64,000 bases of DNA, taken from contig CAIUQE010000034.1 of the NCBI GenBank assembly GCA_903901225.1, positions 17,391 to 81,390 of the forward strand. The letters are read 5' to 3'. The DNA comes from Candidatus Omnitrophota bacterium (GTDB lineage: Bacteria; Omnitrophota; Gorgyraeia; Zapsychrales; Fredricksoniimonadaceae). The notes under the pieces are model-generated. The model ran no database searches and was not told the DNA's origin. It was given only the letters and a program-made list of their open reading frames with translations. Made by a program: the position numbers and the translations under genes. Below are positions 49,272 through 55,200 of the stretch, one piece after another (the first letter of the stretch is position 1; every line of letters begins with the position of its first letter).

Positions 49272-52200
49272 CTACCTCCCCGGACGGACGGAAGGCAGGC
49301 CAAGGAACCCGGCGACATCCTCCAGGGGCGCCATGCCGATGATCACGGGCCTGATGCCCCGCGCGCCATCCAGCCGGTGTACGGCGACAGGGTCAAATTG
49401 GAACGCCGTGCGCTGGCCGTCATCGCGGGCTTCGACCGTCCGCATGCCGGGAGCGAGGTCGATGCCGCCGGGAGCGGAAGCGGCGGGATCGGGATCTTTT
49501 ATCTTTCCTTTGCCAACAAGGGCTTTTCTTTTTTTGTTCCACAACACCATTGCAACCTGCGCAAAAACAGCTTCCGGGTTCTTCCATGACTGTATGGCAT
49601 ACTGAACCAGTACTTTGCCATCAAGCTCCTCCAGTTTCCAGGCATCCTCCGTCTTCAGCTTTTGGATAAGCCATTGGACTTTTTCAAACACATTCTCCGC
49701 GAGGATACGGGAAATATCATCGGTGTCAAAAATACCCAGTTGGCGCAAAATATCTATCTGCGGAAGCCCGCTGTCAGGAGCAATGGCAACCGCCTCAAGG
49801 TCGGCAGGGACAGCCAGCGCTGAAAACTTTGCTGGCGGGAACTTGACAGGTTGGACAACGACTCTCTTACGGCGATCAAGCCTTTTCACCCTGGAAGTGG
49901 GCCCCACAGGTCGCGCATTATTATCCAGATCCTGCTTCGCGTTGTTCAAACGATCCGCTGTACGAAGGTCCGACCTGACCGCATACCTCATCAATACCGG
50001 GCTCGCCACCGACGACAATTTGTATCCCTCAGCCTGCAATTGCCGTACCAAGTCCTGGGCCCTCTCCATTCGCCCTACGTAGGACAAAAGAGTGTAGAAT
50101 TTTGCGTCATCAAAGATCTGCTGCCCCTGGAACCATTCAATGTAACCAGGAATCCTCTCCCTGAACGTTGCTCCATATTTATCAGCCAGCGTAGCGGCGC
50201 GATACGGCGTAAAGATCGCTTGGCCGGCACTATTTTCATATGTCAGCAATTGCAGCATGAAAATAACCCGTTCATACCGGTCATCTGCTTCGGCAATAGC
50301 CCTGGCGGCTTTCTCATCCAGCATTTCTTTGCCATCCCAGCGCATGCGTAACAGTAGCCGGAAAAAGATGTCTTTATCCCATGAATCTGGAATAAGAGTC
50401 TTTAGAAAACCCAGGACATCCATCAGGCTCCCGTCTTCGCCTGCCGCGATGGCCAACCTTTGCCCGAGCAACAGGGCGATATCCTTGTTGGTCAGCGTGA
50501 TGGTCGTCTTCTTCGAGGCATTCCTTACCGTTGAACTGAAGAATTTCCGATACTGCAGCAATTGTTTATAAGCGTACGGCGACATCTTCCGCTTTTCAGT
50601 CTTCAAACTTTCGATCAGGGCCATAACTTGTTCGATCGTTCCCAGCTGAACAAGATTGAAGAACTTCGTGGCATCTATATCTTTCTGGTCCAGGAACCAG
50701 CTTACCTGGTCGGCAACCTTTCCCCTCCTGTACCTGCCCAACAATCTCGCCAGCGTAGCGGCCCTGGGAATATCAAAAAGCGGCTGGCCTTCCTTGCCCT
50801 TATACCTTAATAATTCAACCAAAAAAACAACCCGCGCGTATCGATCCGGCGAACTCAGGATCGATTCAACCCCTCTCGCCTCAATCACCCTTTTCCCGCC
50901 GCATTCCATACGGGCCAATTGCCACGCAAAGGCCTGTTCATCCCCGGAAGTTTTCGCGAGCTCTTTCAAGAAGTCCCGCGGGACACCATTGTCAGGACTG
51001 ATGATGACCGGCTCCACGCCAGCCGTCATCACCGGTGACGGGTACGCAGCAACTGCCTTCTGAACGGATCTAACTACCGGCATCTTTATTCCTTCGGAGG
51101 TTTTAAAGGCTTTAACCGTCTTCACGGGACGATCACCCGATCGCGCCCGGGGAGAAATCTTCCTTTCTGCCAATTCCTTCTTCATTGCGCTTAAGTTCAG
51201 CCAATTTTTTGATCCGGCATACGGCTTTCTCGCGTACTTGATCAGTACTTTACCGTCAAATGGCGGCTGCCAGCCTTCCGACACCAACAGTTGGACAAAA
51301 TCCTGGATCTTTGCCAACAAAGATTCAGTAACGACGTAATAAATATCATCACCGTCAAAAATGCCCTTTGCCATCAACCAGGGAATATTTGGAAAAACAT
51401 TCGCCCTTAAATTTACTCCACCGAGCTTGGCCAGTGCCACCACTTGATCGTAACCCAGCAAAGGAGCGCCTTGCTTATCACTGTATCCTGAAAGTTCGAT
51501 CAAAGAAAGGGTCCGCTCATAACGATCAGGTTTATGCGCGATCTCTTTCGCTATATCGGGCCTCAACGGTATCCCTTGCAGGCTTATCCTCAGCAACTGC
51601 CCCGCAAATGCCTCCTCATCCTTGATCTTTTTCAGGCCCTGCAAAAAAGCCTGGATATCGACCGCCTCCCCATCTGCCTGCGGTTCGACTGAAACCCATT
51701 CAGGGACCTGCGCGACAGGATCTTTTTGCGCCGCAAGCTCCTTCCTTACGCGCTGCAAACATTCCTGGTCCGTAAGCTGGCGGTCCGCGGCATATTTGAT
51801 CAACACCTTGCCCTCGACATCAACCCATGTCTGGCCGCCATTCTTCAAAGCATCCACAAGCGATCTGATCCTTTTATACAGCCGCCCCCTGAAGATACGG
51901 TAAATATCATTGCCATCGAAGAGGCCCTGCGCGGCCAGCCAACCTGTGCGGGCCGGCGCCCATCGCCTGAAATTAGCCCCATACCTTCTGGCCAATGTGA
52001 GGGCCTGGATAAAACTAAAAAGCGGCCGGCCGGCTTTATCGCGATATGCCCAAAGTTCGATCAAAAATACGGCCCGCGCGTACCGGTCGTCTTCCCTGGA
52101 AATTTCCTCCGCGGCTTTTTGTTTCATACTGGTCCCGTGAAAACTGATCCGCTGCAACTGCCGTGCGAACTCATTTTTATCATCGGTCTTTTGAAGCTGC

Positions 52201-55200
52201 TTCATAAAACCCGGGACATCCACCTTGCCGCCGCCGGCATCGGGGACAACGGTGACCCCTTCAGGAGCCATTTTAACCGGAACTTCTTTCTTTTCCAGTT
52301 CAGCCCTCAAGTTGTTTAACCAGGCTCCGTCTTTGGAAACCCGCATGACGGCATATTTCAACAATATCTTGCCAGCGAGCACGGGCGCTTCCCGGCCGCT
52401 CTGCGTCAATTGATCGATCATGAACCGGATCTTGACCACCAACCTGTACTTCAAGATCCGGCTGATATCACTGCCGTCAAAAATATCCTGCTCCATCAGC
52501 CATTGCAGGCGCGACCGTACCTGGCTTCTTCCCCGCGGGCCGGACGACCCGGCGATCGTCACGGCTTGCTCGGGAACGAACAGCGGCCGGCCCTGCACAT
52601 TCGCGTATGTCAAAAGTTCGACCACAAAAAGCGCCTGGGCGTACCGATCGCCGCTTCGGGCGATCTCCTTGGCCGCCACGGGACCGACGGGTACCCCCTG
52701 GGACCTGAGGCGTGCCAACTGCCGGACAAAGACCTCTTCATCGTCGATCTCTTTAAGGTTCCTCAGAAAGTCAGCGATATCGACTTTCTCACTCCCTGTT
52801 GCAGGCCCAATGGAGATCCACCGGGGAATACCCGCAACAAGCGCTTCTGTCGTCTCAAGTTCAGTTCGGATCCTTTTTATCCGCTCGGCATCTATCCGAC
52901 CCGGTATCATGGCATGCTTGATCAGCATTTTACCGTCCAGCCCAGGCACTTCCGGCCCTGCCTGCCTTAACCCGGCCATAAGCAGCTCGATCTTCAGGAA
53001 TATCGTGTTTTTAATAACATAATAAATGTCGTTGCTATCGAAGATGCCCTGCTTCAACAACCAGTTAATGCGCCATAACGCCTGTTCTCTGACATTCAAG
53101 CCGGGTAATCCGGCCAATGACATGATCTGTTCAAGCGTAAATAGAAGCCGGCCATTTTCATCCTGGAATCTCATAAGCGCGATCACAAAAAGGACCCGCG
53201 CGTACCGGTCAGGTTCACGGGCGATCTTTGCCCACGCATCATGATCCAGGGCTTGCCCCCGGAATTTGACGCGCCGCAATTCTTTCAGGAGAACACCCTC
53301 TTGAACTTCTTCCAGCCCTTTCAAATATTCTCCGACATCAACGGGCTTGCCGTCATCGCCCGCATCAACAGCCAGCCCTTGCGGAAAACTTGTAAGCATT
53401 TCGTTACTCTTGAACTTTTCCTTGATCCCCTCCCACGGGTCATTGCCAAAAGCCCCCTGGTTGCTCATATACGCCATCAATCTTATGCCGTCCAGCCGAG
53501 AAAGCCGGTATCCTTCACGGGACAGGTCATCGATCAGCACCCTGGCCCTTTCCAGCCAACTCCTTGCCAGGAGCGTATAAAACTGCCGCTCGTCAAAGAC
53601 GGTCTGGCCCAGGAACCAGGCAACCTGCCCGGGCAGCTGCATCCTGTTGCTCCTCTCCAAAGAATTTGCCAGCACCCGCGCGCGTAAAAGATCGAACAAC
53701 GGCTGGCCTTCATTGTTCCTGTAATTTAAAAGTTCCATCAATACAAGAACCCGCGCATACCGGTCTTTCCTGACGGCAAGCCTGCCTGCGGCCTGCGGGT
53801 CCCAGACAACTTCCCCCTGGAACCTCATACGCGGCAATTGTCCTTCAAAAAAGCTTTCTCTCCCGGCCTGTCCAAGTCTTTGCAGGAAGTCCCGCGCGTC
53901 CTCCATGCCGCTGCCATTCTCCGGAGCAATGGTCAATCCCTCCGGGATCTTGACAGTAACAATCGAGTTCTGCGCAGCATCGATCGCAAGGTCATAGTGC
54001 TTTCCTGGCACCAGAACAAGCCGCAGACTTTGCGGCAACTTGATCTCTTTTTCATTCAACCTTGCCGTAAATTTCTTACTTTTTATCATCCCCGCCAAAG
54101 ATTCACGCCCTGGTTCGATCAAAAAACGCCCCAGCACATCAGCCAAACTTGTGCCTCGCAAAACATCAGAATAGCCCGCGACTTTGATCGCGACCTCCGC
54201 GGGCCCGACTTCATCCTCTTCTTTGTCGATAAGCTCCTCGAGAGGATCCATCCCATCGGCAACGATCACATCCAACAAGGACCCTTCCCCACCGGAAAAT
54301 TTCTTGTCCAATGATCGAAAATAAAAAGACTGGGCTATCTGAATATCACGCAATAAATATCCTTTATCGCGCAAATGCGCGACGATATCCATCTCAGGCA
54401 CTTTGACTTTTCTTTCTTGATAAATAGTCGCCATGATCGTCTTTACATGCGGTGCAAGTCTTCGAAAAGCCAAATACCATTTATAATGAAGGCACACAAA
54501 CCTGACATTATTCTTTAGATTGCTCAATCCCGCGTTCGAACGGTACCATTTGTAATGTTCCAAATAGGCATACGCCGCTTCCTTAGCGTCGTTATCATAC
54601 GGAAAGTCCCTGTTCACGAAATATTCAGGCAGCCATTCAAACAACAGATTCAAGAACTGCCGACGAATATCAGCACTAAAACTTATGGCCAATGATTTGA
54701 GCTTCGCATCCTGACCTTCAGGTCCATTCTGCCTCAGGTATTCCAGATCCTTCTTGTCTTGCGCGATGAACTCCTCAACTTTTTTCTTAAACATCCCGGC
54801 TTCAGCCCCAGCCACCTTATCCAGAAAGAAAGCAATATCAGGGACATCGGCTTTAACCAGATAAATCAGACGCCAACGTAAAAGTTTAGCAACAACTGGC
54901 CATTGAGAAGCAGGCTTGATTGACCAATCCAGGATGCTTTTCTTAACGTAAAAAGGACTCAGCAAGTACTGCAGGACCATCCTGGGTGAAAATCCAAAAT
55001 GAGTGAATCGTTCCCACAATTCTTCAAATGCTTCTTTATGAAAATACCGGCGCCTTTCCAAACATGATCGAATAAGGCTGTCATTAAGTTGCCACCCATG
55101 ACTTTCCCACCGCATCAAATACCCGATCATATTCACAACGTCCTTAATACCGGCATCATCCGATATAAACGGCACTCTTAACGCTTGATCCACATTGAAT

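Follow-up and report, generated by a model that had tools for sequence, protein, structure and literature searches.

Tandem ~187-residue helical modules in a giant, putatively exported protein of an Omnitrophota bacterium

Omnitrophota are abundant, uncultured nanobacteria that apparently depend on hosts, and little is understood of this relationship. A 64,000-nucleotide stretch from one of them (Candidatus Omnitrophota bacterium, GenBank assembly GCA_903901225.1, contig CAIUQE010000034.1, positions 17,391 to 81,390), which we call the window, encodes a giant protein. Its open reading frame (ORF), at 49272..56699 (-), has 2,475 codons, counted from the first GTG, and contains a tandem array of units marked by the motif DRYARV. 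What are these units, and does the array hold other parts of the protein apart or does it bind something? We find that the segment consists of seven full copies, one half copy and one degenerate copy of a ~187-residue all-alpha module that was duplicated anciently and is now positionally specialised.

The DRYARV array and its repeat unit

The tripeptide DRY occurs seven times in the giant protein, at residues 979, 1164, 1351, 1538, 1725, 1952 and 2140, each time in a similar context. We cut units 55 residues N-terminal of each DRY and aligned the seven over ~187 columns; their pairwise identity is 21-40%. A hidden Markov model (HMM) of the seven units recovers seven full copies at 219-259 bits, with boundaries at residues 923-1107, 1111-1295, 1296-1481, 1483-1669, 1670-1848, 1900-2082 and 2084-2271, and a half unit at 2314-2391. 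When each unit was scored with a profile made from the other six, it reached 122-190 bits, whereas none of 200 shuffles per unit exceeded 8.3 bits. The periodicity is also visible in the DNA, where a seed-and-extend search recovers a spacing of 561/555 nt with 60-74% identity around the DRYARV codons, though Tandem Repeats Finder, with a longest period of 500, does not report the array, its copies being too diverged. No DRYARV unit was found in the other ORFs of the window in any frame. The repeat is an old duplication, neither an assembly artefact nor a recent expansion.

A preliminary description of this DNA, made from the letters alone, had proposed seven and a half tandem repeats of ~187 residues at 49530-53912. 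The count is borne out by the HMM copies, the leave-one-out scores and the DNA spacing, and the span lies within a few codons of the 49527-53930 given by the HMM. Both consensus motifs that it quoted, one around DRYARV and one around GIFD..DIY in the second half of the unit, are present in the seven-unit alignment. Its unit starts, however, are the positions of the DRY motifs (with 1724 to be read as 1725) and not the unit boundaries.

From N- to C-terminus, the giant protein has a hydrophobic N-terminus, an N-domain, a weak partial unit, a mid-module, the repeat array and a C-terminal domain, all encoded on the minus strand:

56583..56651 (-): putative Sec signal peptide, MIHRSVAGVLVLAFLMSDVRAYA/QG, read by eye from the sequence
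55440..56582 (-): N-terminal 'carrier' domain, ~380 aa, common to three window paralogs and >1,500 proteins
55164..55394 (-): degenerate partial repeat unit, aa 436-512 (HMM 11 bits, profile positions 18-90)
54120..55076 (-): mid-module, ~320 aa (aa ~542-860), with the motif Y.EHY.W.R.NAG.ENL
53376..53930 (-): repeat unit 1, aa 924-1108 (HMM 235 bits)
52815..53375 (-): repeat unit 2, aa 1109-1295 (HMM 240 bits)
52254..52814 (-): repeat unit 3, aa 1296-1482 (HMM 250 bits), used for the single-unit model
51693..52253 (-): repeat unit 4, aa 1483-1669 (HMM 259 bits), second unit of the two-unit model
51117..51692 (-): repeat unit 5, aa 1670-1861 (HMM 228 bits)
51012-51116 (-): ~35-aa insertion after repeat unit 5, visible in the unit alignment
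50448..51011 (-): repeat unit 6, aa 1897-2084 (HMM 219 bits)
49875..50447 (-): repeat unit 7, aa 2085-2275 (HMM 240 bits)
49527..49760 (-): terminal half unit, aa 2314-2391 (HMM 38 bits, profile positions 102-178), hairpins 4-5 only
49275..49499 (-): extreme C-terminal domain, ~65-75 aa, GGIDL...FQFDP...PVII...FLG, conserved in the carrier family

Public gene calls start the protein at 56666 (2,464 aa) or at an ATG at 56651 (2,459 aa). An identical 2,459-aa product, with identical neighbours, is present in the freshwater metagenome assembly ENA ERZ18667579 (scaffold_136, 80.5 kb), and a near-identical protein of 2,464 aa was found on 23 contigs. Read by eye, the hydrophobic N-terminus (…VLVLAFLMSDVRAYA/QG) is probably a Sec signal peptide, and such a stretch also begins the paralogs and homologs of the giant protein. 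The array is basic (pI 9.55, net charge +40) and the N-domain is acidic (pI 5.7).

We modelled unit 3 with AlphaFold2, using the seven units as a shallow alignment. The model, with a predicted local distance difference test (pLDDT) score of 81.8 and a predicted template-modelling (pTM) score of 0.75, agrees with the earlier expectation that the units are largely alpha-helical. After a short N-terminal strand, helices at 13-21/26-33, 45-52/57-67, 81-90/93-109, 114-122/126-138 and 148-156/163-177 form five helix-loop-helix hairpins that start at residues 13, 45, 81, 114 and 148, a period of 32-36 residues. Small beta bridges are predicted at 36-42 and 71/77, the first ~40 residues include beta strands, and pLDDT falls below 50 over the last ten residues. 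Thus the ~187-residue unit stands as a repeat but, in the model, not as the elementary one, being made of five ~34-residue helical hairpins. The sequence itself partly supports the hairpin as the elementary repeat. Profile self-comparison of the unit with hhalign detected no internal sub-repeats, and a 36-aa single-repeat HMM from P0128, a metagenomic protein of short repeats described below, gave the array a marginal 11.5 bits, with shuffled sequences reaching at most 3.5. A junction motif that we defined post hoc, [LI]F-x3-[QD]-[AI]-x2-[IL], recurs at a spacing of 33 aa far more often than in shuffles.

Conservation was read from 25 units of the giant protein, its ortholog and the related proteins P0122 and P0123. 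The conserved columns form the hydrophobic core and include an Asp before helices at 12, 44, 56, 113 and 147, again with a period of ~34; the conserved basic residues are R35 (100%), R57, R60, R96 and K/R170. In the model, the D of the DRY motif is a helix cap and its RY begins the second helix of hairpin 2. The order of secondary-structure elements at residues 26-80 fits a winged helix-turn-helix, and the array could be imagined as a tandem series of such domains, in which the DRYARV helix is the recognition helix and the second half of each unit a helical bundle. Beyond the order of elements nothing supports this idea, no classical winged helix-turn-helix is among the top fold matches of the unit model, and we regard it as highly improbable.

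How are the units joined? A model of two consecutive units (pTM 0.49), as the preliminary description had suggested making, predicts flexible joints and no rigid rod: the linkers of ~20 residues, in which Pro, Gly and charged residues abound, are of low confidence, and no continuous superhelix is seen. With the caveat of the shallow alignment, the models are best read as ~165-aa modules that fold independently and follow one another on ~20-residue linkers. The array would then be a flexible string of mini-solenoids rather than a single continuous superhelix.

Conservation of the units and their possible ligands

Do the individual units matter? A syntenic ortholog of the giant protein, 4,037 aa long (L001 3668-15781), is encoded in the GTDB genome 'Candidatus Omnitrophica bacterium Ki2-D4_bin-0675', with RNase II and PPK2 upstream and a PAS-GGDEF-EAL protein downstream, flanks that match those of the giant gene. 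It carries about 13.5 units (~13 full ones plus the same terminal half unit) compared with 7.5 in the giant protein, and an equivalent of the degenerate partial copy, which scores 23 bits. Units 1-7 each have a single clear counterpart there, at 93, 88, 88, 90, 68, 69 and 60% identity, that of unit 1 being ortholog unit o2233 and that of unit 2 being o2420. The additional units in the ortholog arose as block duplications of a pair resembling units 1 and 2, together with one more pair. Because the units are 60-93% identical to their counterparts and only 21-40% identical within the protein, the units have not evolved in concert and are specialised by position.

The same holds column by column: positions that are hypervariable among units are 71% identical between the orthologs, and conserved columns 93%. 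The ratio of nonsynonymous to synonymous divergence (dN/dS) between the giant protein and its ortholog is 0.17-0.43 in every unit, against 0.15 in the N-domain. Judged from these alignments, the units are under purifying selection with unit-specific conservation. Synonymous divergence (dS) along the gene is mosaic: it is ~1.0 over the N-domain and 0.9 over the C-domain, with 0.14-0.31 over units 1-4 and 0.55-0.86 over units 5-7. This suggests that recombination or exchange between lineages reached the block of units 1-4 at a later time than the remainder of the gene.

These observations bear on the two roles that the preliminary description had offered, a ruler or stalk and a multivalent binding array. 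The array might be a passive spacer, stalk or ruler between the N-terminal carrier and the C-domain, or between cell and host, with units that bind no ligand. Several points speak for it: the number of units differs between syntenic orthologs, most of the conserved positions belong to the hydrophobic core or cap helices, the protein is built of modules joined by linkers, and dN/dS in the units is somewhat above that of the N-domain. The difference in copy number, for its part, fits a ruler and a binding array alike. The ruler or stalk is weakened because every unit is individually conserved between species, down to its unit-specific columns, and the low-confidence linkers of the two-unit model disfavour a rigid rod. 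A spacer would also leave the net charge of +40 without explanation and sits poorly with P0123, a relative with only two units. We consider a passive spacer unlikely; a binding array stays the best reading, and the behaviour of the units is that of binding modules specialised by position, not of a homogenised spacer.

If the units bind, what do they bind? Helical-hairpin modules are typical protein-binding scaffolds, and each unit might dock a different partner (exported effectors, host surface proteins or the mid-module) in the manner of alpha-solenoid adaptors. The positional specialisation and individual conservation of the units would fit such a scaffold, as would their constant co-occurrence with the uncharacterised mid-module. 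On the other hand, the gene neighbourhood suggests no partner and gives no functional hint, the flanks being housekeeping genes (RNase II, PPK2, GGDEF-EAL) that are the same in the ortholog; the units match no TPR, HEAT, ARM or Sel1 profile; and the basic charge is not accounted for. We think this reading rather unlikely.

Comparison with known folds gives a different lead. Pfam, searched with the whole giant protein at E<=0.1 and with a single unit at E<=10, leaves the array unmatched, and no TAL_effector, mTERF or helix-turn-helix family appears. The TPR, HEAT and Sel1 profiles, classes that the preliminary description had named as possible accounts of the array, do not match the unit, nor do ARM, PPR or ankyrin profiles. 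NCBIfam has no match on the giant protein, and a PDB sequence search with the unit profile returned 0 matches at E<=10. Foldseek finds nothing significant for the unit model (best E 0.34), and its highest template-modelling (TM) scores, at 0.40-0.44 below 0.5, belong to transcription activator-like effectors (TALEs) and BurrH. The nearest known shapes to the modelled unit thus appear to be the hairpin arrays of TALE/BurrH and mTERF, a weak resemblance that does not establish membership. Unit 3 contains LFVPEQAVTIAGSSG, reminiscent of the TALE LTPEQVVAIASNGGG.

Taken at face value, this likeness would make the array a true sequence-reading binder of TALE or mTERF type, with one base or base pair per hairpin, acting as an effector at defined host DNA or RNA sites. 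Much speaks against it. Direct kinship with the canonical TALE repeat is not supported, hhalign of the unit profile against five copies of the consensus giving a probability of 0.45% and an E-value of 0.13. The Pfam search found neither family even at E<=10, the structural scores stay below significance, and the two-unit model lacks a continuous superhelix. The first ~40 residues of the unit hold beta strands in place of hairpins, no hypervariable di-residue like the repeat-variable di-residue of TALEs is seen in the units, the repeats are not near-identical, and the putative Sec signal peptide implies another route than the type III secretion of TALEs. Such a binder is, in our view, quite improbable.

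Collectively, we lean towards a broader model, held tentatively and a little short of probable, in which the exported array serves as a multivalent binding platform, either at the surface of the host cell or within it, with a polyanion as the favoured ligand. Behind a Sec signal peptide, the array would be interchangeable cargo between the conserved 380-aa N-domain and the conserved 65-aa C-terminal domain; on the host cell of this host-dependent nanobacterium, or delivered to it, the array would present a separate binding surface on each positionally conserved module. The candidate ligand would be a polyanionic polymer, nucleic acid foremost, since the array is basic and its nearest structural neighbours are TAL effectors, BurrH and mTERF. 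A more specific form seems to us a long shot: the array would be remotely akin to the solenoids of TALE/mTERF type that read nucleic acids, as a new branch of them built of five-hairpin modules on flexible tethers, and would be exported to bind the DNA or RNA of a prokaryotic host with each module on its own short site. If the resemblance to TALE and mTERF proteins is functional, we would have here a new modular scaffold for nucleic-acid binding, and it would point to effector-type manipulation of prokaryotic hosts; if host DNA or RNA is bound, it would be a TAL-effector-like strategy between prokaryotes. If the resemblance is not functional, the array is still a clean new domain family.

A family of carriers and cargoes

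Is the array peculiar to one protein, or part of a wider system? Three further ORFs of the window, at 14596-19686, 19702-22170 and 22260-25886, all (-), carry the N-domain. Identity over this domain is 45-66% among the four paralogs and 45-57% between the giant protein and the other three. The paralogs share signal-peptide-like N-termini, some have the C-terminal domain, which in the giant protein matches that of g1208, and their middles are unrelated. The paralog at 14596-19686 (1,696 aa) has three stretches, one of them at aa ~1130-1200, that match AvrB_AvrC / XopAH (Pfam E 1e-22; score below the NCBIfam cut-off), and another paralog carries a HAD hydrolase in its middle. The DRYARV array is unrelated to the AvrB-like repeats, and is thus a second repeat architecture within the family, as had been proposed. 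AvrB_AvrC / XopAH is a type III effector family of plant pathogens and unexpected in Omnitrophota.

Beyond the window, the N-terminal 420 aa of the giant protein have 1,516 homologs at E<=1e-5. All those whose source names bear a taxon are labelled Omnitrophota/Omnitrophica except one (P0115, Pacearchaeota archaeon). The cargo domains that Pfam recognises among them include HAD, NUDIX, HEAT-type repeats, methyltransferase, epimerase and metallophosphatase, and one member of 438 aa is essentially free of cargo. Of the 139 proteins collected, 36 have the C-terminal domain, in each case at a distance of 0-21 residues from the end. Neither the N-domain nor the C-domain has a relative in Pfam, NCBIfam or PDB sequences, and a search of the PDB with the N-domain profile was likewise empty. 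From this architecture we infer an exported, Omnitrophota-specific family with a constant carrier and interchangeable cargo, of which the DRYARV array would be one type. The four paralogs look like members of an undescribed carrier-plus-cargo, polymorphic effector-like family, and other cargoes in it (AvrB-like, HAD, NUDIX) resemble classical effector enzymes. The locus also offers a way into the cargo repertoire of the carrier family.

How rare is the unit? The HMM search that had been proposed for it was run exhaustively (hmmsearch) against 1.84 billion cluster representatives and found 15 proteins at E<=1e-3, seven of them at E<=1e-10. Of the 15, P0121 is the giant protein itself; P0122 and P0125 are fragments of close relatives; and P0123 combines two units with the N-domain and the C-domain. 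P0124, P0126, P0127, P0130 and P0132 combine diverged units with the mid-module within the same N/C frame, two of these five being adjacent genes in one Omnitrophica metagenome-assembled genome. The few matches outside the N/C-frame family are weak. The terminal half unit is a conserved last element in the ortholog, P0122 and P0125. A word-indexed homology search with units 3-4 and the mid-module came back empty; it also missed the near-identical P0121 and listed no N-domain homolog longer than 730 aa, and such nulls for long proteins reflect a blind spot of that search and not absence. The 187-aa helical module is therefore both rare and unannotated, with no sequence relative in Pfam, NCBIfam or PDB.

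The mid-module occurs together with DRYARV-type units in seven proteins: the giant protein, its ortholog, P0124, P0126, P0127, P0130 and P0132. It is placed either before or after the units and has the invariant motif Y.(E/D)HY.W.R.NAG.(E)NL. No relative was found in Pfam, NCBIfam or PDB sequences, and a profile search of the PDB gave only noise. An impression by eye that it might be sigma-70/ECF-like found no support, hhalign against E. coli RpoE giving a probability of 1.1%.

The four carrier-family genes (14001-26000 and 48001-56000) have a G+C content of 0.48-0.54, compared with 0.56-0.64 in the housekeeping flanks, and a more negative GC skew. Immediately upstream of the three clustered paralogs, and on the same strand, is a TamB-like ORF at 26508-27854 (-) (Pfam E 6e-20), which may be relevant to paralog export or envelope assembly. 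The remaining window is ordinary chromosome, with complex I/Mrp subunits, transporters, a DEAD helicase and histidine kinases. At its low-GC left end (GC 0.43-0.45) are two ORFs, at 3802-6647 (-), read in translation only: a 449-aa ORF that by eye resembles a WYL/HTH-type regulator, and a 520-aa ORF with a nuclease-like N-terminus.

Relation to known systems

The carrier-plus-cargo plan has counterparts elsewhere. Polymorphic toxin and effector families such as Rhs, CDI and MafB join a constant delivery part to swappable cargo. The proteins described here likewise have a conserved N-terminal part and variable cargo, to which they add a conserved C-terminal tag that frames the cargo in the centre. 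Four paralogs in 64 kb, low-GC cargo genes and mosaic synonymous divergence are further likenesses. Unlike in Rhs, CDI and MafB, where the variable part is C-terminal, it is central here, no immunity gene is evident, and there is no sequence relationship between them.

Within the phylum, very long proteins (Archaeovorins, dockerin-type proteins and tandem-repeat scaffolds) have been catalogued (bioRxiv 10.1101/2023.11.21.568195, 10.64898/2026.06.07.730766). They resemble the putatively exported giant protein in being exported or membrane-associated, in having tandem repeats that have diverged and, at the nucleotide level, decayed, and in the HAD, NUDIX and methyltransferase modules among them. 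The catalogued proteins are at least 10,000 aa long and built from the known Pfam repeats TSP3, NHL, WD, HEAT, TPR and dockerin, and we found no description of the 380-aa N-domain family or the DRYARV unit in these catalogues (10.1101/2023.11.21.568195, 10.64898/2026.06.07.730766).

Among helical repeat proteins, TAL effectors and TALE-likes (AvrBs3/PthXo1, RipTALs, BurrH/Bat, MOrTL, STAR; PF03377) have no significant sequence or profile similarity to the unit. Their repeats are near-identical 34-mers, whereas the DRYARV units are 187 aa long and 21-40% identical. A TALE array is a continuous superhelix, in contrast to the five-hairpin modules with flexible linkers between them in our models, and TALEs use type III secretion while the giant protein has a putative Sec signal peptide. 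The mTERF proteins and their prokaryotic pTERF relatives are helical repeat binders of nucleic acid (PMC11417379). They differ in that their motifs are three-helix units, and Pfam mTERF does not match.

A likeness in sequence links the unit to P0128 (666 aa) and P0133 (567 aa), related and uncharacterised metagenomic proteins with 9-10 tandem repeats of the form F-N-x-x-Q-A-V-x-I-A-x-(C/S)-S-N-P-…-L-x-L-x-D, those of P0128 being ten plain repeats of 35-36 aa. Neither protein matches Pfam or PDB sequences. Positions 12/13 of their repeats are conserved and not variable. The P0128 repeat aligns in register with the TALE consensus at an hhalign probability of 84%, although both profiles were constructed, and the two proteins may represent an undescribed TALE-like repeat family. 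Three successive repeats of this kind (32-36 aa, F-x-x-x-Q-A-x-x-I-A-x-S-x-N-P…) line up with hairpins 2-4 of the DRYARV unit, profile positions 42-139 matching three P0128 repeats with a whole-library E of 7e-9 and an hhalign probability of 84%. P0128 and P0133 are plain arrays of short repeats without the Omnitrophota N- and C-domains, whereas the hairpins of the DRYARV unit have diverged into fixed, non-interchangeable positions. The unit is best filed among the helical-hairpin repeat proteins, with an unusual organisation: a 187-aa super-repeat on flexible tethers.

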